Assembly: GCA_035402805.1 (NCBI GenBank)
Contig: DAONDY010000001.1
Span: forward strand, 13,697-77,696
DNA length: 64,000 nt
Direction of reading: 5' to 3'
DNA from: Candidatus Woesebacteria bacterium
GTDB taxonomy: Bacteria; Patescibacteriota; Microgenomatia; UBA12405
Under the pieces are notes generated by a model, which was given only the letters and a program-made list of their open reading frames with translations, ran no database searches and was not told the origin of the DNA. Position 1 is the stretch's first letter; every line of letters starts with the position of its first letter. The position numbers and the translations under genes were made by a program. Below are positions 28,625 to 42,637 of this stretch, one piece after another.

Positions 28625-28964
28625 AAAGTTTTTTTATTATTCGCTTTCTCTTGCTTCTATTTTTTTGATTTTTGTCAATTTTGTTTCACCCGAATTTCTT
28701 TGGTCCAAAATAATTTTCTTCTTTGTTATATTTTGTTTCTTCTTTTCCGTTGTTTGTATTTTCTCACAAAAATATAAATTAAATTTATTCCTGTCTATCT
28801 ATTTAATTTTGTTAATTTTATTTTATTTTTTCCATCAACTTAATTTATTAAATTTTTGTATCCTTACCGGCATCATAATTACCGTCATATTTTTAATCAA
28901 AAACGATCAAAAATCGAAATTAAATCCCAAATCTAAGCCTAAATTTAGCAGTCAATCAACTTGA
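28617..28964 (+). CDS. Hypothetical polytopic small membrane protein
   Basis: 115 aa, 3-4 predicted TM. Overlaps the rmuC stop by 8 nt. Confidence 0.3.
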   Translation: MNKKFFYYSLSLASIFLIFVNFVSPEFLWSKIIFFFVIFCFFFSVVCIFSQKYKLNLFLSIYLILLILFYFFHQLNLLNFCILTGIIITVIFLIKNDQKSKLNPKSKPKFSSQST

Positions 28965-28978
28965 GTGATATTTACCTC

Positions 28979-29007
28979 TTGACACTATCTAGCACTCGGT
29001 CTATTAT
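28979..29007 (+). promoter_or_regulatory. Sigma-70-like promoter of the hrcA operon (TTGACA-17-TATTAT) with a CIRCE-like half-site in the spacer
   Basis: -35 TTGACA 28979-28984; -10 TATTAT 29002-29007; hrcA ATG at 29017, so a near-leaderless transcript. CTAGCACTC (28989-28997) matches 8/9 of the CIRCE arm TTAGCACTC. A partner arm GAGTGATAT lies at 28963-28971. Confidence 0.4.
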
Positions 29008-29016
29008 ATTGCTAAT

Positions 29017-35605: not shown

Positions 35606-36301
35606 ATGAAAAAATATAATGTCTCTGAAGCTAAAAATTTACTTTCCACAGCTAAAACAGCCCTAATTGCCGTACCTCAACTTAATGTTGATTCAATTGG
35701 CTCAGCTTTGGCTTTAGCTTTGCTTTTAAAAAGATCCAATATTACCGTTAAAGTTTTTTGTCCTCAAAAAACTGATGCTAATTACACTAAATTAAGTGGA
35801 CTTGAACTTTTAACCGATATTTATAATCCTAATGATTTAATTGTTACCTTAGACTATCCTTTAGATCAAATTGAAAAAGTTACCTATAATCAAGATGGTG
35901 GCAAGCTAAATTTAGTTGTTCAAACCAAAGATGGTTCTCCAAAAGTTGCTGAAAACCAAATTTTAATTAGTAACCAAGCTGCCACTGCCGATATTAATTT
36001 CTGTCTTGGTGAGGAATCTCTTTTAGGTGCCAACTCCAACATTGTTAATAAAGGTAATTGGATTAATATTTCTCCATCTATAGTCGAAAAACCATGGGCT
36101 AAGGTAAATATTATCGACCAAGATGCTCCATTCTCTGAAATTTTAACTTTCTTATTACCTATGCTTGGCTTGGAATTAAACCCAGATTCAGCTAAAAATC
36201 TTTTAATTGCTCTTAGAGTTGCCACTCAGTCCTTCTCTATCAATGTTTCTCCAGAAACATTTGAAGCTGGTGCTGTCTGTCTTCGTGCTACCCAAGCTTA
36301 A
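35606..36301 (+). CDS. DHH-family (NrnA-like) domain protein with degenerate catalytic motifs, lacking DHHA1
   Basis: 231 aa. VDSIGSALALALLLK resembles the NrnA DxDxxGSxLALAL region, but DHH is replaced (IDQD). Occupies the rbfA/nrnA slot between infB and rpsO. Confidence 0.4.
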   Translation: MKKYNVSEAKNLLSTAKTALIAVPQLNVDSIGSALALALLLKRSNITVKVFCPQKTDANYTKLSGLELLTDIYNPNDLIVTLDYPLDQIEKVTYNQDGGKLNLVVQTKDGSPKVAENQILISNQAATADINFCLGEESLLGANSNIVNKGNWINISPSIVEKPWAKVNIIDQDAPFSEILTFLLPMLGLELNPDSAKNLLIALRVATQSFSINVSPETFEAGAVCLRATQA

Positions 36302-36685: not shown

Positions 36686-38905
36686 ATGGAAATGTATACA
36701 AAAGATATTTTGGTTGGCGATAAAAAAATTACCCTTCAAACTGGTAAACTCGCTCCTCAAACAAATGCCTCTGTCGTGGCTCAATACGGCAATACTACTG
36801 TTTTAGCTACCGTTATTATGGGCAAAACAGATGATTCAAAGGATTATTTTCCTTTATCTATCGAATTTGTCGACAAGCTTTATGCTGGTGGCATCGTTAA
36901 AGGTGGAAAATGGATTAAGCGTGATGGTGGTCCTTCTGATAGTGCTGTCCTTTTTGGCCGAATTATTGATCGATCCCTTCGTCCTCTTTTCCCTGGCGAC
37001 TTTATGAATGAAGTTCAAATTATCGCTACTGTTTTAAGTAATGATAAAGATAATGATGTTGTTATTCCCGCTTTCACTGCCGCCGCCGCTGCTTTAGCCA
37101 TTTCTGATATTCCTTTTAATGGTCCAGTTTCTGCCGTTCGTGTTGGTTATATTAATGATCAACTAGTTTTAAATCCATCCATTAAAGAATTAGAAAATTC
37201 TAATATGGATCTTTTAGTTTGTACCGGTCTTAATGGTGTCAATATGATTGAATGCGACGCTAATATTGTTGCCAATGATATTGCCTTAAAAGGTATTGAA
37301 TTAGCTAAAAATACTAGTGATGAAATAAATAAAGAAATTACCGAATGGGCAAAAACTTGTGGTAAAGCCAAAATCAGTTATGAATCAGCTGGTCCTTCCG
37401 ATGAACTAGTAAACGAAATCGAATCTAAAATTAAAGCCGATGTTGAAGCCTTTTTAGAAGCTGGTGTTGATGGTTCACATATGGTTGGTCAAGAAAAAAT
37501 TGTTGATCAAATTTTAGAAGACTATAAAGATAAAATTGAGTCCGAAGAGGTTTCTAAAAATCATTTAGTCGCTGCCGTTGATTCAATTATTAGAAAATAT
37601 TTACGTCAAAGGGCTTTAAAAGGTATTCGTTTTGATCATCGTAAAATGGACGAAATCAGACCTTTAACTATCGAGGCTGGTGTTCTTCCATGTGTTCACG
37701 GTTCTGCCTTTTTTCAAAGAGGCTTAACTCAGGCAATCACAGTCACCACCCTTGCTCCTTTATCTGAAAGACAATATTTAGAAGATTCTAGTGGCGAAAC
37801 CACCAAAAGATATCTTCATTATTATTCTGCTCAGCCATTTTCTACTGGCCAAACCGGTCGAGTTGGTCGTCCTGGTCGTCGTGAAATCGGTCATGGCGCT
37901 CTTGCCGAAAAAGCCTTAATTCCCGTTATTCCCACTGAAGAAGAATTTCCATATACTATTGTTTTAACTTCTGAAGTTTTATCTCAAAATGGTTCTTCTT
38001 CTATGGCTTCTACTTGTGGTTCCACCATGTCTCTTATGGATGCTGGTGTCCCTATCAAAGACAAAGTCGCTGGAATTTCCATTGGTTTAGTTGCTGAAAC
38101 CGATGATAATTATGTTCTTTTAACCGACATTGCTGGCACTGAAGACCACAATGGTGACATGGATTTTAAAATCACTGGCACCAGAAATGGCATCACTGCT
38201 ATTCAATTAGACATCAAAAGAGCCGGTCTTACCTTAAAGATGATTGCCGACACATTTGTCGCTTCCACTAAAGCCAGACTTCAAATTTTAGACAAGATGG
38301 AATCAGTTTTGGCTGCCCCACGAGCCGAACTTTCTGAATTTGCTCCAAAGATTAAAATGGTCACTTTACCAGAAGATAAAATTGGTGAAGTTATCGGTAG
38401 CGGTGGTAAAACTATCAAAGCTTTAATGGAAAAATATGATGTTCAAATTGACATCGACGATGATGGTAAAGCTTCAATTTCTTCCCAAAATCAGGAAAAT
38501 ATTGATAAGGCCGCTTATGAAATTGAATCTATGATCAAAGAAGTTCAAATTGGTGAAGACTATGAAGGCGTTGTTACTCGAGTTGAAAATTTTGGCGCTT
38601 TCGTTGAGTTCTTACCAGGTCGCGAAGCTCTTCTTCACGTATCTGAAATGACTGGTGGATTTTTATCCGACCCTTCAACAATTATCAAAGTTGGCGATCG
38701 ATTGAACGTTAAAATTGCTGGATTTAATGATAATCACCAAATAAAATTATCTTCCCCAGAATTTAAAGCTGCTCATCCAGGCTTGCCTCGACAACAGGCG
38801 GGTCAGCCTCGTTCAGAAGGTCAGGATAATCGTACTAGTGGTTTTAAAAATTTTACCCCACCTCGCAAAGATAATAATCGTGCTGGCTTCCGCCCTCGTC
38901 GATAA
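36686..38905 (+). CDS. pnp: Polyribonucleotide nucleotidyltransferase (PNPase)
   Basis: 739 aa. Two RNase PH domains, then KH (GSGGKTIKAL) and S1 domains, with a basic R/G-rich tail. Confidence 0.9.
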   Translation: MEMYTKDILVGDKKITLQTGKLAPQTNASVVAQYGNTTVLATVIMGKTDDSKDYFPLSIEFVDKLYAGGIVKGGKWIKRDGGPSDSAVLFGRIIDRSLRPLFPGDFMNEVQIIATVLSNDKDNDVVIPAFTAAAAALAISDIPFNGPVSAVRVGYINDQLVLNPSIKELENSNMDLLVCTGLNGVNMIECDANIVANDIALKGIELAKNTSDEINKEITEWAKTCGKAKISYESAGPSDELVNEIESKIKADVEAFLEAGVDGSHMVGQEKIVDQILEDYKDKIESEEVSKNHLVAAVDSIIRKYLRQRALKGIRFDHRKMDEIRPLTIEAGVLPCVHGSAFFQRGLTQAITVTTLAPLSERQYLEDSSGETTKRYLHYYSAQPFSTGQTGRVGRPGRREIGHGALAEKALIPVIPTEEEFPYTIVLTSEVLSQNGSSSMASTCGSTMSLMDAGVPIKDKVAGISIGLVAETDDNYVLLTDIAGTEDHNGDMDFKITGTRNGITAIQLDIKRAGLTLKMIADTFVASTKARLQILDKMESVLAAPRAELSEFAPKIKMVTLPEDKIGEVIGSGGKTIKALMEKYDVQIDIDDDGKASISSQNQENIDKAAYEIESMIKEVQIGEDYEGVVTRVENFGAFVEFLPGREALLHVSEMTGGFLSDPSTIIKVGDRLNVKIAGFNDNHQIKLSSPEFKAAHPGLPRQQAGQPRSEGQDNRTSGFKNFTPPRKDNNRAGFRPRR

Positions 38906-38917
38906 GTTATAATCAAA

Positions 38918-39439
38918 TTGATGTCTAAGGAAGTTTCTAAATGGATCGGTATTAGTGGCAGTTGGCGTGCTACCAGTTCTGAAATTGAAAATAATGTTCG
39001 AACTCAAGTTCGAGATATTATAAATGAAGGAAATGGTATCGTTACCGGCGGAGCCTTAAATGTTGATTATCAAGCAGCAGATGAAGTTCGTAAACTTAAT
39101 GCTCTGGATCAACTAAAAGTTTTTCTACCAGTTAGTTTGGATCTTTTTGTGGATCATTATCGTCGCCGTGCCACTGAAGGGGTTGTTACCTCTAAACAAG
39201 CTGATGATGTTATTGAACAATTAACCAGTATTAAACGACTAAATCCTAATAGCATTATTGAAAATACGATTGAAACAACTGTTGATAAAGATTCTTATTA
39301 TCGTCGAAATTCTGAAGTTGTAAATGCTTCCGATGAATTATTAGCTTTCCAAGTTAATCAAAGTCAAGGAACTCAAGACACAATTGATAAAGCTAAAGAA
39401 AAAGGAATACCTGTCAAAGTCTTTTCTTATACCTTATAA
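38918..39439 (+). CDS. DprA/Smf-like Rossmann-fold (SLOG) domain protein, stand-alone
   Basis: 173 aa. IGISGSW...IVTGGALNVDYQAADEV...LKVFLPVSLD...ELLAFQVNQSQGTQDTIDKAKEKGIPVKVF parallels the DprA core (IVGSR...VSGGARGIDxAAH...AVLGxGLD...LVVEAxxxSGSLITA...GRxVFAVPG). No SAM or winged-helix extensions. Confidence 0.4.
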   Translation: MMSKEVSKWIGISGSWRATSSEIENNVRTQVRDIINEGNGIVTGGALNVDYQAADEVRKLNALDQLKVFLPVSLDLFVDHYRRRATEGVVTSKQADDVIEQLTSIKRLNPNSIIENTIETTVDKDSYYRRNSEVVNASDELLAFQVNQSQGTQDTIDKAKEKGIPVKVFSYTL

Positions 39440-39456
39440 AAACTTATACTTAAAAT

Positions 39457-40515
39457 ATGGAAAATCAATTAACCACCGCCGAGGCGATTAAAAAACTTGT
39501 CGATAAAGTTTCTGCTGTCAAAATACCTGATGGTTTAGGTCTAAAATTACAAGAACTTTTTTCCCAACTAGAAATTAATTCTCAAAATGAGGAAACTTTT
39601 TGGCAAAATTATTACAACATTTCTAAATATGTTTATTGGGTTATTGCTATCCCTTGGTTTAATGAAACTAAAGATATTTTAGATTTGCGTTTTACCAAAG
39701 AAAAATTAGATCAAGAGCATTATGGTTTGGAAACCATCAAAGAAAGAATTTTAGAATATATTTCTGTCCTATCTTTACAAAAAAATCGTAATCCAAACGA
39801 AACAATTCAAGCTCCAATTATTCTTTTTGCTGGTTTAGTTGGTACTGGAAAAACTACCATGGCCAAATCAATTGCCAATGTCATGGGTCGTGAACTTGTT
39901 AGAATTCCTTTTGGTGGTCTTGGTGATGCTCATTATCTTCGCGGTTATACTCGTACTCGTCCCGATTCTGAACCAGGCCAAATTATTAAAGGTTTAGTTA
40001 ATTGCAAAAGCCGCAATCCAGTTATTTTATTAGATGAAATCGACCGTGTTGCCGACGATGCTTTAAATACTATCATGGGTGTTTTAGTTGAACTTCTTGA
40101 TCCAGAACAAAACAGTCATTTTGTCGATCATTATTTAGATTATCCAGTCGATCTTTCTCAAGTCATTTTTTGCGCTACTTGCAACAATACTTCTCGAATT
40201 GCCACTGCTGTTATGGATCGATTGGAAATTATTCAAATGCCATCATATACAGACGAAGAAAAAATGGTTATTGCTCGCGATTATCTTTTACCCAAGGCAT
40301 TAAAAAGCACTGGTCTAAATTCAGCTGATTTAAAAATCGGCGACAGTCTATGGCCACAAATTATTCGTCCTCTTGGTTTCGATGCTGGGGTTCGTACACT
40401 TCAACGCAATATTGAGGGTATGTGTCGTAAAGTTGCTAAAGTCATTTTAGAAGGCAAAACTAGACAAGTGGTTATTGACGAATCCAATGTCAAAATATTT
40501 TTACCTCAATGGTAA
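39457..40515 (+). CDS. Lon-like AAA+ ATPase module without LON N-domain and without protease domain
   Basis: 352 aa. LDQEHYGLETIKERILEYISV; Walker A GLVGTGKTTMAKSIA; RGYTRTRPDSEPGQIIKGL; Walker B VILLDEID; DPEQNSHFVDHYLDYPVDLSQVIFCATCN. All align to Lon residues ~230-580. The ORF ends before the S-K protease domain. Confidence 0.6.
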   Translation: MENQLTTAEAIKKLVDKVSAVKIPDGLGLKLQELFSQLEINSQNEETFWQNYYNISKYVYWVIAIPWFNETKDILDLRFTKEKLDQEHYGLETIKERILEYISVLSLQKNRNPNETIQAPIILFAGLVGTGKTTMAKSIANVMGRELVRIPFGGLGDAHYLRGYTRTRPDSEPGQIIKGLVNCKSRNPVILLDEIDRVADDALNTIMGVLVELLDPEQNSHFVDHYLDYPVDLSQVIFCATCNNTSRIATAVMDRLEIIQMPSYTDEEKMVIARDYLLPKALKSTGLNSADLKIGDSLWPQIIRPLGFDAGVRTLQRNIEGMCRKVAKVILEGKTRQVVIDESNVKIFLPQW

Positions 40516-40540: not shown

Positions 40541-40566
40541 CTGAACCATTTGTGGTTGCGGTTCAG
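40541..40566 (+). terminator. Hairpin (CTGAACC...GGTTCAG) followed by a T-rich tract after the Lon-like gene
   Basis: 7-bp stem with an alternative inner pairing AACCA/TGGTT. Downstream TTATTTATTATT. Confidence 0.3.
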
Positions 40567-40607: not shown

Positions 40608-42356
40608 ATGTTTAAAAATCAAAACACAAATTTTATTAAAAATGCTCCAAATCAGGTCCGAGAATACAAATCAGGCCACGATTCGGTGCGAATTAGCTCC
40701 CTTGGGGGCTTTGGCGATGTCACTCAAAACATGTTTGTTTATGAGTTCATTCCCAATGGCGATCTTGCCAGAAGTCAAATTATTATTGTTGATTGTGGGG
40801 TCGGTTTTCCCGAAGAGGACGCCTTTGGCGTTGATCTTCAAATTCCCGACACTCACTATCTTGAAGATAAAAAAGACCGAATTTTAGGTATATTTATTAC
40901 TCACGGTCACGAGGACCATATTGGAGCCGTTCGTTTTATTCTGCCAATTTTAGGTCAAAATGTTCCAGTCTACGCTCCCAAATTAGCTGCTGCTTTTATA
41001 GAAGCCCGACTTGGCGAAGTTCAAATTCGCGCTAATCTTCAAGTTTATGATGAAAAAACTTTACCTATAAACAAAGGTCCTTTTATTATTGAACCAATTA
41101 GGGTTACTCATTCTATTCCCGACACTTTTCATTTTGCCATTAATACACCAATTGGTATTTTTTATCATGGTTCCGATTTCAAATTTGATTTATTTCCTCT
41201 AGATGGTAAAGGTGCTGATTATCAAAAAATCGCCCGTGTTGGTCAAGGAAAAGTTATTGCTCTAATGTCGGACAGTTTAGGATCTGACCATGAAGGTTTT
41301 TCACCTTCAGAATCTTCTATTGCTCAAAATTTTAAACAAGAAATTATTTCCGCTAAAGGTCGAGTTTTTGTTACTTCAATTTCTAGTAACATTGTTCGCT
41401 GGACTCAAGCCATTGAATACGGCAAAAGTGTTGGTCGAAAAATAGTTATTGTTGGTTTTTCGGTAGACAGGGCTATCAAAATTGCCAAAGATTTAGGCTA
41501 TTTAACTCTAAATGACACCGACATTGTCCCCATTGAAAGAGTTAAAAATTTCAATGAAAACAAATTGCTTTTCTTAGTTGCCGGTTTTGCTGGTCAGCCA
41601 GATTCGGCTCTCAGTAAAATGATCATGGGTAAACATAAAGTTAAAGTCAAAGCTGGTGACAAAGTTATCTTTTCTTCCCCAGATTATATTCCCGGCACCA
41701 CTTCTAATATTTACAATATGATCGATCTTCTCTCTAAAATGGGGGCCGAAGTTGTTTATGGTGAAAAAGAAGAATTGCATGTTTCCGGTCATGGTTATCA
41801 AAAGGAACATGCTCTTTTAATTAATTTATTAAGACCAAAATATTTATTACCAATCGGTGGTAATTATCGTCATTTAAAGAGTTATCAAGAGATGGCCAAA
41901 AAATTAGGTTACACCGAAGAACAGGTGATTTTGCCAGATTTTGATGCTTCAGCCACTTTCAATAGCAATGGCACCGTCGACACTAATTTTCATATTTCCA
42001 TTAGAAAAGTTTTAATTGATGGATTTGGAGTCGGTGATGTTGGCACTACTGTTCTAAGGGATCGAAAAACTCTGGCCGAAGATGGTATGTTCTCTGTTGT
42101 TTTATTGATTGAAAAGGAATCTGGCAAATTAGTTAAACCTCCAGTTGTCTTAAGTCGTGGGTTTGTTTTTATGAAAGAAAACACCGAACTTATAGACTTT
42201 TTAAAGCTTGAAATTACTAATAAATTTAATCAATCTACCAGTTCTCCGGCCAATATGGATTTTATTCGTGAAGAAGTTCAAGCTTCTCTTGAAGAAATTA
42301 TCTACAAAAAAACCGGCCGACAACCAATGGTCTTACCCTTAGTAATCGAAGTATAA
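40608..42356 (+). CDS. rnj: Ribonuclease J (metallo-beta-lactamase / beta-CASP RNase)
   Basis: 582 aa. HGHEDHIGAV motif, beta-CASP region and C-terminal domain. N-terminus ...VRISSLGGFGDVTQNMFVYEF typical of RNase J. Confidence 0.85.
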   Translation: MFKNQNTNFIKNAPNQVREYKSGHDSVRISSLGGFGDVTQNMFVYEFIPNGDLARSQIIIVDCGVGFPEEDAFGVDLQIPDTHYLEDKKDRILGIFITHGHEDHIGAVRFILPILGQNVPVYAPKLAAAFIEARLGEVQIRANLQVYDEKTLPINKGPFIIEPIRVTHSIPDTFHFAINTPIGIFYHGSDFKFDLFPLDGKGADYQKIARVGQGKVIALMSDSLGSDHEGFSPSESSIAQNFKQEIISAKGRVFVTSISSNIVRWTQAIEYGKSVGRKIVIVGFSVDRAIKIAKDLGYLTLNDTDIVPIERVKNFNENKLLFLVAGFAGQPDSALSKMIMGKHKVKVKAGDKVIFSSPDYIPGTTSNIYNMIDLLSKMGAEVVYGEKEELHVSGHGYQKEHALLINLLRPKYLLPIGGNYRHLKSYQEMAKKLGYTEEQVILPDFDASATFNSNGTVDTNFHISIRKVLIDGFGVGDVGTTVLRDRKTLAEDGMFSVVLLIEKESGKLVKPPVVLSRGFVFMKENTELIDFLKLEITNKFNQSTSSPANMDFIREEVQASLEEIIYKKTGRQPMVLPLVIEV

Positions 42357-42370
42357 AATCTAAAACTGTT

Positions 42371-42637
42371 CTACAAATATTTGTTCCATTTATTATCAGT
42401 AATAATACTGTTATTTTTTTTGCAAAAATTTTTTTTAGCTTCTTCCTCAAGATTACTAATTTCTTTATTAATAACCAAACCCATATTTCGTCCATGATCT
42501 TTCTTTTCTTCCTCGCTTAATTCAGGAGGTGGATCAGGAAGTTCATTCACAGCCATATTAATTTCTTTAGCCATCTCCATATAACATTTCTTATTTCCAG
42601 GAACTGTACAAATTTCACAATTTCTTTTTTCACTCAT
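42371..42637 (-). CDS. Hypothetical small Cys-containing acidic protein (orphan, opposite strand)
   Basis: 88 aa. CEIC...KC near the N-terminus. No other motifs. Confidence 0.3.
   Translation of the reverse strand: MSEKRNCEICTVPGNKKCYMEMAKEINMAVNELPDPPPELSEEEKKDHGRNMGLVINKEISNLEEEAKKNFCKKNNSIITDNKWNKYL

Follow-up and report, generated by a model that had tools for sequence, protein, structure and literature searches.

A stand-alone Lon-type AAA+ ATPase lacking a protease domain, and its SLOG-domain neighbour, in a Patescibacteria genome

The locus and its two genes

We analysed a stretch of 64,000 nucleotides from Candidatus Woesebacteria contig DAONDY010000001.1, the whole of which is referred to below as the window, with a focus on two adjacent genes: one encoding a Lon-like AAA+ ATPase of 352 amino acids (aa), and the other a SLOG-domain protein of 172 aa. 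The window is dense with housekeeping genes and has a G+C content of ∼33%, and its best protein matches carry the names Candidatus Woesebacteria or Shapirobacteria (Microgenomates group; Candidate Phyla Radiation, CPR, or Patescibacteria). On its + strand lie, in this order, hrcA, grpE, dnaK, dnaJ, nusA, infB, an open reading frame (ORF) of 231 aa, rpsO, pnp, the SLOG ORF (172 or 173 aa), the Lon-like ORF, rnj, proS, and ftsK. The two genes under study and their immediate flanks are as follows:

38921 to 39439, + strand: DprA-clade SLOG domain (Rossmann-like) that stands alone as a protein; 172 aa when read from the ATG at 38921, or 173 aa from a possible TTG start at 38918
39457 to 40515, + strand: stand-alone LonA-type AAA+ ATPase, 352 aa, assigned by TIGR00763, Pfam AAA and Lon_lid, PDB 3m6a, and AlphaFold/Foldseek
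36686 to 38905, + strand: pnp (PNPase, 739 aa; Pfam RNase_PH twice, KH, and S1), the conserved upstream neighbour of the Lon-like gene, given as context
40608 to 42356, + strand: rnj, also given as context, which encodes RNase J (582 aa; Pfam domains Lactamase_B, RNase_J_b_CASP, and RNase_J_C) and whose place downstream of the Lon-like gene is conserved

The Lon-like ORF had been described, in an original prediction made from the sequence, as complete and cleanly bounded, and this holds for both ORFs. An identical 352-aa Lon-like protein is encoded on 14 contigs from independent NCBI, ENA, and JGI records, and among the best 120 homologue clusters (71 to 100% identity) the length is 353 aa in 118 and 352 aa in the other 2; the stop codon at 40513 to 40515, which had been singled out for checking, is therefore real. 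The ratios of nonsynonymous to synonymous substitution (dN/dS, Nei-Gojobori) against three related species, which are approximate because dS is near saturation, were 0.19 to 0.27 for the Lon-like gene, 0.06 to 0.17 for the SLOG gene, and 0.11 to 0.18 for pnp and rnj. Neither of the two genes is an artefact or in decay.

The Lon-like protein and its family

The 352-aa ORF is a LonA-type AAA+ module, in which C-terminal HI(CC) helices lead into the alpha/beta domain, and this in turn into the Lon lid. It matches the NCBIfam model TIGR00763 (endopeptidase La, lon) over model positions 252 to 571 of 795 only (E 1.7e-94), with a score of 317.9 bits that lies below, at about half of, the curated cutoff of 608, and its Pfam content is limited to AAA (PF00004, 1.5e-17) and Lon_lid (PF22667, 3.4e-11). 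Over its full length, the ORF aligns with the ATPase portion of LonA structures, namely with Bacillus subtilis Lon 3m6a (E 3.6e-77) and with 7yph, 6u5z, and LONP1 (E about 1e-63 to 1e-66). An AlphaFold model of the protein, built on the family alignment, has a predicted local distance difference test score (pLDDT) of 90.5, and Foldseek superposes this predicted structure on LonA and LONP1 AAA+ modules with query-normalised TM-scores (TMq) of 0.80 to 0.87. Compared with 6n2i, the Escherichia coli Lon(235-584) fragment, the model reaches a target-normalised TM-score (TMt) of 0.86, so that the fragment is nearly fully covered, and from this fit the natural ORF has the boundaries of the laboratory construct EcLon(235-584). 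The latter comprises the C-terminal part of HI(CC) together with the AAA+ module, binds ADP, and forms an open hexameric spiral in crystals (PMC6722904). The original view, that the ORF aligns with the Lon AAA+ module and the helices preceding it, thus stands on the sequence models, the 3m6a alignment, and the modelled fold alike.

The same limits bear out the predicted lack of the two outer Lon domains. The LON N-domain (PF02190) gave no Pfam match in the ORF, whose alignment to the lon model starts at position 252; nor does the ORF, ending at position 571 of 795, contain the S16 protease domain with its Ser-Lys dyad (PF05362). Further, a tblastn search of the window with 13 canonical Lon N-domains and protease domains returned only short chance matches, none of them below E 0.024, and the same queries found none in the ORFs of the relatives' loci L001 to L090 (∼90 loci, ∼80 species, with 10-kb flanks); the reach of this search for a protease partner was thus the window and the 10-kb flanks of the loci. 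The Lon-like stop codon lies only 92 bp from RNase J, a gap too short for a frameshifted protease domain. With an isoelectric point (pI) of 5.6 (family median, 5.96), the Lon-like protein is mildly acidic, as is the same region of canonical Lons (6.42).

Residue conservation was counted across 95 family members, and the motifs map as follows:

39457 to 39789, + strand: N-terminal helical segment, aa 1-111, comprising the last LonA HI(CC) helices, with a conserved KY..W....PW motif; aligns to Lon residues about 243 to 350
39832 to 39855, + strand: Walker A GLVGTGKT, aa 126-133; G126, G129, G131, K132, and T133 invariant (95/95)
39940 to 39978, + strand: pore-loop 1 RGYTRTRPDSEPG, aa 162-174, aligned to 3m6a and 7yph; canonical form RGHRRTY[VI]GAMPG
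40021 to 40044, + strand: Walker B VILLDEID, aa 189-196; D193 and E194 invariant (95/95)
40183 to 40185, + strand: sensor-1 asparagine N243, invariant (95/95)
40219 to 40221, + strand: arginine finger R255 in an MDRLE motif; D254 and R255 invariant (95/95)
40303 to 40461, + strand: Lon lid (small alpha) domain, Pfam PF22667, aa 283-335, E 3.4e-11
40393 to 40395, + strand: sensor-2 R313 in the motif GVRTL; G311 and R313 invariant (95/95)

The residues that define a member of the AAA+ superfamily, namely the Walker A lysine, the Walker B Asp-Glu pair, the sensor-1 asparagine, the arginine finger, and the sensor-2 arginine, are therefore present in all 95 proteins. In the AlphaFold model, the N-terminal segment folds into five helices (residues 7-19, 25-43, 45-64, 77-87, and 92-111). 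The Walker A motif has a signature of its own, GL[VAQ]GxGKT (where x is T, V, or I, and a few members have GVQG or GIQG), as opposed to GPPG[VT]GKT in canonical LonA.

The pore loops are altered as well. In pore-loop 1, the gripping tyrosine is replaced by Arg168 in the window protein, which is followed by a proline and acidic residues (Arg-Pro-Asp-Ser-Glu). Position 168 is occupied by F in 19, H in 15, S in 13, Y in 10, R in 8, and L in 7 of the 95 members, with other residues in the remainder, so that F or Y is found in 29. The positions downstream read P169 in 57, E or D at 170 in 82, E172 in 91, P173 in 88, and G174 in 94, which gives the family consensus RG-x-S-[RK]-x-x-P-[DE]-[AS]-E-P-G, and the same pattern recurs in 120 close homologues. 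Pore-loop 2, which follows Walker B, is rewritten to RVADDALNTIMG in place of the canonical KMSSD[FW]RGDPSS, and the whole stretch from Walker B through the loop reads DEIDRVADDALNTIMG where a canonical Lon has DEIDKMSSD[FW]RGDPSS. The hydrolysis site is thus intact and under strict selection, whereas the pore, although selected, is no longer built around an aromatic paddle. No ClpP-docking type of loop is evident in the protein.

A search of 1.84 billion cluster representatives with the Lon-like protein returned, among its top matches, ordinary Lons of 770 to 840 aa (41 to 47% local identity) together with a group of shorter proteins, all of which end at the lid domain. AAA and Lon_lid are the sole Pfam content of this shorter group, and its longer members are extended by low-complexity, Q/P/S/N-rich tails only. 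Neither a LON N-domain nor Lon_C was found in any 50%-identity cluster representative bearing the Walker A signature (including the few GVQG and GIQG variants), and the [DE]GPSAG protease motif is absent from every family member. The family proteins are 340 to 390 aa long and, by names and record titles, from which their placement was taken, centre on Microgenomates and WWE3; the labels include Shapiro-, Woese-, Ames-, Levy-, Gottesman-, Davies-, and Roizmanbacteria, WWE3, Dojkabacteria, "Patescibacteria group", and several metagenome-assembled genomes (MAGs) labelled Saccharibacteria. In a neighbour-joining tree of the AAA+ core, computed without support values, one split parts all 95 family members and an intermediate (P0318) from 76 canonical Lons, and the canonical Lons closest to the family come from Mollicutes, Clostridia, Veillonellaceae, or Spirochaetes, or are unnamed; none is named as CPR. 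These observations suggest that the Lon-like proteins form a single-origin CPR family that probably descends from LonA and has kept its ATPase engine only. NCBI names the protein "AAA family ATPase", whereas IMG names it "ATP-dependent Lon protease", a label that overstates what the gene encodes. Our full-text literature search found no description of a protease-less Lon ATPase family, nor of Lon in CPR/Patescibacteria.

Two features of the search results are recorded as side observations. First, many top-scoring representatives (P0241, P0243-P0254, P0256, P0258-P0259, and others) are proteins of 900 to 1800 aa with two or three tandem Lon-type AAA+ modules and two or three Walker A motifs; most of these proteins end in a Ser-protease motif, and none is in the window. 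Second, contigs L011, L012, L015, L016, L022, and many others have unmistakable CPR gene order and CPR-like proteins under titles such as 'uncultured Gammaproteobacteria', 'uncultured Pseudomonadales', or 'Candidatus Methanoperedens sp.', and are probably mislabelled or contaminated MAG records.

The SLOG protein and the gene neighbourhoods

The second ORF is a stand-alone SLOG domain, whose fold is closest to the Rossmann core of DprA. This sustains the original description of a 173-aa protein carrying only that core, with the length amended to the 172 aa that NCBI calls (P0121), consistent with the ATG at 38921. Its scores against DprA sequence models fall below the thresholds (PF02481, 23.5 versus 29.6 bits; TIGR00732, 20.8 versus 191 bits), and Helicobacter pylori DprA matches it at E 0.013; the DprA motifs G-[ST]-x-R and GGAxxxD occur in it as GSWR and GGALNVD. 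A confident assignment as a LOG hydrolase had been raised as a possible outcome, and the closest fold and sequence matches are not to LOG/TIGR00730. The family comprises ∼500 clusters at 90% identity, with proteins of 168 to 183 aa, from several CPR phyla. The mean column identity is 57%, and the many invariant or near-invariant polar positions are W9, G14, S15, W16, R17, R28, G44, G45, D50, H80, Y81, R84, E87, Y127, R130, D139, E140, N147, S149, G151, and K158. The SLOG protein is acidic (pI 5.1), unlike what would be expected of a DprA that coats single-stranded DNA, and this acidity, together with the many invariant polar residues, favours a nucleotide-type ligand; the protein may therefore bind or process such a ligand.

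Between CPR phyla, SLOG proteins are 57 to 63% identical, as compared with 38 to 47% for pnp, infB, and rnj, yet the family is patchily distributed, has no fixed neighbours, and was found here in CPR-labelled records only. Conservation between phyla in a gene so patchy and unattached is consistent with lateral mobility within CPR or with very strong constraint. A phage origin was considered and rejected: PHROGs held only a full-length Lon family and a weak SLOG-like match (phrog_289, 8.8e-11), and IMG/VR gave partial, distant SLOG matches only.

We then examined the neighbourhoods of both families. For the Lon-like family, 80 species-level GTDB loci were fetched with the family alignment, 78 of which have a callable Lon-like gene, and the six-frame ORFs of the loci were searched with the SLOG-family profile and the window's neighbouring proteins. 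Among the 78, pnp lies immediately upstream of the Lon-like gene in 39 and within three genes in 8; a further 13 have rnj downstream with another or no available upstream context, 9 are divergent from groES-groEL, and 9 show other contexts. The block nusA-infB-x-rpsO-pnp-LonAAA-rnj-ftsK, in which LonAAA denotes the Lon-like gene, is collinear in most loci, down to 45 to 50% identity. Immediate pnp-to-LonAAA adjacency holds in 39 of 53 cases with a median gap of 54 bp, and is comparable to that of rnj to ftsK (34/52) and of ftsK to HTH (29/43), so that the Lon-like gene is part of a long collinear housekeeping block; the adjacencies of nusA to infB (35/35) and of rpsO to pnp (44/44) are tighter. 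On the downstream side, rnj is immediately adjacent in 29 of 73 loci, and otherwise one to three genes intervene. Gaps of tens of bp suggest that the Lon-like gene is co-transcribed with pnp within this block, as far as spacing can indicate. Taken by itself, the pnp/rnj synteny does not mark RNA decay out from other functions, and a proteostasis role is fitted equally loosely by the groESL-adjacent group and by the dnaK operon at the head of the block. In the loci with groESL context (L055, L067, L071, L072, L075, L076, L084, L088, and L089), where the groES-groEL operon was identified by reading the sequences, the pore loop reads KTSPE[AS]EPG and transcription is divergent; one MAG (CAZBWW01) carries both copies, one in the pnp context (L087) and one in the groESL context (L088).

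Other genes recur in these neighbourhoods, all named by motif only. A gene resembling family-4 uracil-DNA glycosylase (UDG; GEAPG...PFVG, about 205 aa) is repeatedly found in the interval from the Lon-like gene to rnj (L013-L016, L021, L024, L033, L037, L041, L054, L070, L079-L083, and L087), with 25 copies in the set, and sometimes has a Nudix-like or YfcE-like phosphoesterase gene beside it. In one Microgenomates sub-group (L033, L035, L042, L045, and L069), the order is rpiB-rpe-LOG-pfkB-LonAAA.

The SLOG gene is present within 10 kb of the Lon-like gene in none of the 80 species-level loci. Even L011 and L012 are without it, although their Lon-like proteins share 79% identity with that of the window. 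For the reverse test, 80 metagenomic SLOG loci were fetched, of which 25 have at least 1.5 kb on both sides; the Lon-like gene is found in 4 of these 25, all close relatives, and is absent from 21. A Lon-like neighbour occurs only where the SLOG protein is at least 67% identical to the window copy (L100 and L102-L106), and no other gene family recurs beside SLOG in the 25 well-flanked loci. SLOG homologues in Paceibacterota, Levybacteria, and Berkelbacteria, which were inspected individually, lie in unrelated contexts. The window's own gene order is repeated in two further Shapirobacteria-like assemblies, and the order in this sub-clade is pnp-SLOG-LonAAA-rnj with zero to two extra genes between SLOG and LonAAA (extra genes in L102 and L106). 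The pnp/LonAAA gap is thus prone to insertion, an instance of which is SLOG in a single sub-clade; that the two genes adjoin is incidental. As to whether the pair is conserved in relatives, it is confined to this close-relative sub-clade.

The remaining features of the window are noted for completeness. Scans for tRNA genes and Rfam families in the window gave no matches. No terminator was found 3' of the Lon-like gene: a hairpin at about 40541 to 40566 is no better than shuffled sequence (z -0.79), and a consensus scan found none. Two CIRCE-like inverted repeats (28945 to 28971 and 28989 to 29015), each with three mismatches to TTAGCACTC-N9-GAGTGCTAA, closely precede hrcA (29017), with which the hrcA-grpE-dnaK-dnaJ-nusA... 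block begins. Heat-shock co-regulation of the Lon-like gene was considered and rejected, since the CIRCE-like sites lie upstream of hrcA only and, in loci of the groESL context, the interval from groES to the Lon-like gene has no convincing site. The 231-aa ORF between infB and rpsO (35606 to 36301) has no recorded Pfam match, and its position is kept in most relatives, at 212 to 410 aa; in many bacteria, rbfA/truB occupy this infB/rpsO slot. The C-terminus of PNPase (38770 to 38905) is a basic, low-complexity tail of ∼45 aa past the S1 domain (...PRQQAGQPRSEGQDNRTSGFKNFTPPRKDNNRAGFRPRR), which could be a candidate interaction or RNA-binding tail; the PNPases of relatives range from 695 to 803 aa. 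Lastly, the - strand carries an ORF of 88 aa between rnj and proS (42371 to 42637), which has a Cys-rich N-terminus (CEICTVPGNKKC) and no Pfam match, and is also a called gene in a public assembly (L001, 12915 to 13181).

Possible roles and comparison with known systems

We consider it probable, at roughly 0.6, that the locus holds two independent genes, one for a non-proteolytic, ATP-driven remodeller or chaperone derived from Lon, and the other an unrelated, wandering SLOG gene. The Lon-like protein would assemble into a Lon-like hexamer and hydrolyse ATP, as is suggested by homology and by the crystal packing of EcLon(235-584), and which is most likely because the residues for nucleotide binding and hydrolysis are all intact. 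It may then remodel or chaperone proteins or protein-RNA complexes without feeding a protease; a remodeller or chaperone is favoured over a processive unfoldase because there is no protease chamber and the pore-loop-1 tyrosine is not conserved. Its gene would be co-transcribed in the order hrcA-grpE-dnaK-dnaJ-nusA-infB-x-rpsO-pnp-[SLOG]-LonAAA-rnj, with SLOG inserted into the pnp/LonAAA gap in the Shapirobacteria-like sub-clade. Several points weigh against this reading. The hexamer, the ATPase activity, and the chaperone activity are all things that we infer. About a third of the family members keep F or Y at the pore-loop position, so that threading is possible for the family, and the conserved acidic P-[DE]-x-E-P-G loop shows that the pore is selected for some purpose. 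In addition, the five loci with the rpiB-rpe-LOG-pfkB-LonAAA order have a LOG-type SLOG gene (GGGPGVMDA) one or two genes upstream of the Lon-like gene; this second, unrelated SLOG-superfamily neighbour slightly weakens an explanation by pure coincidence.

An ATPase linked to RNA decay or to the ribosome, in which the Lon-like protein would serve as an ATP-driven accessory of a PNPase/RNase J assembly and remodel ribonucleoproteins (RNPs) or ribonucleases, is unlikely, although it fares best among the alternatives. It draws on the pnp gene immediately upstream (39/53) and the rnj gene one to four genes downstream in most loci, on a synteny that spans lineages only 45 to 50% identical, and on the RNA and translation functions encoded in the block (nusA, infB, rpsO, pnp, and rnj). 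Lon lid domains and mitochondrial Lon have, moreover, been reported to bind DNA and RNA. However, the adjacency is no stronger than those of rnj to ftsK and of ftsK to HTH, which are clearly non-functional, a UDG-like, Nudix-like, or phosphoesterase-like gene often stands between the Lon-like gene and rnj, and the second context group adjoins groES-groEL; the mildly acidic protein and its acidic pore loop are also unfavourable for RNA binding.

Slightly more doubtful is a split or partnered Lon, in which the ATPase would serve a protease encoded elsewhere (a stand-alone S16 or another peptidase) or form mixed hexamers with a full-length Lon. The end of the ORF coincides exactly with the AAA+/protease domain boundary, all ATPase motifs are intact, IMG annotates the protein as a Lon protease, and in one relative (L009) the gene lies between M16 and M23 peptidase genes. 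Yet the window and the locus flanks hold no Lon_C or LON-N, whereas after a recent split of the gene the protease ORF would still lie next door; the translocation tyrosine of the Lon pore loop is not conserved, and there is no evident loop of the ClpP-docking type. The family is, in addition, old, of single origin, and marked by its own Walker A signature. A bolder proposal, which we put forward as speculation and consider unlikely, is that Microgenomates-type CPR gave up Lon proteolysis and kept a re-tooled Lon motor, dedicated to ATP-driven work alongside the RNA-decay machinery of PNPase and RNase J or alongside ribosomes or RNPs during their assembly. If true, it would give a Lon-derived engine, with an acidic pore devoid of the tyrosine, a new cellular role.

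That the SLOG protein and the Lon-like ATPase form a two-gene functional module, devoted to defence or to remodelling under the control of a nucleotide signal, is now very improbable, as synteny has largely refuted it; a defence-related module or a remodelling pair was among the suggestions of the original prediction. The SLOG gene is missing from all 80 species-level Lon-like loci, including those with 79% identical Lon-like proteins, 21 of the 25 well-flanked SLOG loci have no Lon-like gene, and genes intervene in L102 and L106. The defence option fares no better: in PADLOC, the SLOG protein reached ShosA at E 0.0058 only and the ATPase matched generic P-loop entries (DolB scoring best, with 1.2e-11 across the AAA core), housekeeping genes make up the surroundings, and no defence-island genes lie nearby. 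The notion of a remodeller or unfoldase survives for the Lon-like protein alone, but not for the pair. Finally, a decaying lon remnant or an assembly or frameshift artefact, which the loss of domains at both ends in a reduced genome might have brought to mind, is virtually excluded by the equal length of 118 of the 120 clusters, the identical sequence in independent assemblies, the invariant catalytic residues, the dN/dS of 0.19 to 0.27, and a downstream region that resembles a protease in none of its frames.

The ATPase and the protease of Lon are commonly regarded as an inseparable fusion. In the present family, purifying selection has kept only the ATPase half, across a wide CPR span and with its substrate-gripping pore loop rewritten, and the family amounts to a natural experiment on the Lon motor without its protease. 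Under the IMG label "ATP-dependent Lon protease", these proteins may be credited, in reconstructions of metabolism and proteostasis in CPR, with a proteolytic activity that they lack. The SLOG protein represents a second uncharacterised family, unusually conserved for its patchy distribution.

Among known systems, the nearest is LonA itself (TIGR00763, MEROPS S16; 3m6a, Meiothermus taiwanensis 7yph, and Mesoplasma florum Lon), with 37 to 40% identity in full-length alignment and 41 to 47% locally. The two have in common Walker A and B, sensor-1, the arginine finger, sensor-2, the KY..W..PW motif, and the fold (TMq 0.80 to 0.87), whereas the N-domain, the Ser-Lys protease domain, GPPGVGKT, the pore-loop-1 tyrosine, and a canonical pore-loop 2 are missing from the Lon-like protein. 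The ORF fails three features that define LonA, namely (i) the N-domain, (ii) the protease domain, and (iii) the curated score, and has no pore tyrosine either; the most fitting description is a protease-less AAA+ family derived from Lon. LonC has kept the protease and lost the ATPase function, and is thus the mirror image of the Lon-like family, which has kept the ATPase and lost the protease; both are Lon derivatives that have dropped one activity. PMC4864567 concerns a Lon-like archaeal protease.

EcLon(235-584) (6n2i; PMC6722904) has near-identical domain boundaries, but it is an engineered truncation of a protease, whereas the CPR protein comes from a naturally occurring, conserved gene and has altered pore loops. 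ClpB/Hsp104 resembles the Lon-like protein in concept, as an Hsp100/Lon-related AAA+ engine without a peptidase, and the HI(CC) domain and AAA+ module of LonA have been likened to a part of ClpB (PMC6722904). ClpB, however, is built of two AAA+ rings with an M-domain, its pore tyrosines are conserved, and the Lon-like ORF matches TIGR03346 at E 0.008 only, which is no membership at the level of sequence.

For the SLOG protein, the relevant systems are DprA/Smf, YpsA, and ShosA, and it has a Rossmann-like SLOG core of the DprA type. Unlike DprA/Smf, it has neither a SAM-like N-domain nor a C-terminal winged-helix/DML1 domain, and no link to competence genes was seen; the SLOG core makes up the whole of its 172 aa. 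What sets it apart from DprA, YpsA, and ShosA is a family-specific helical hairpin that carries the invariant residues H80, R84, and E87.

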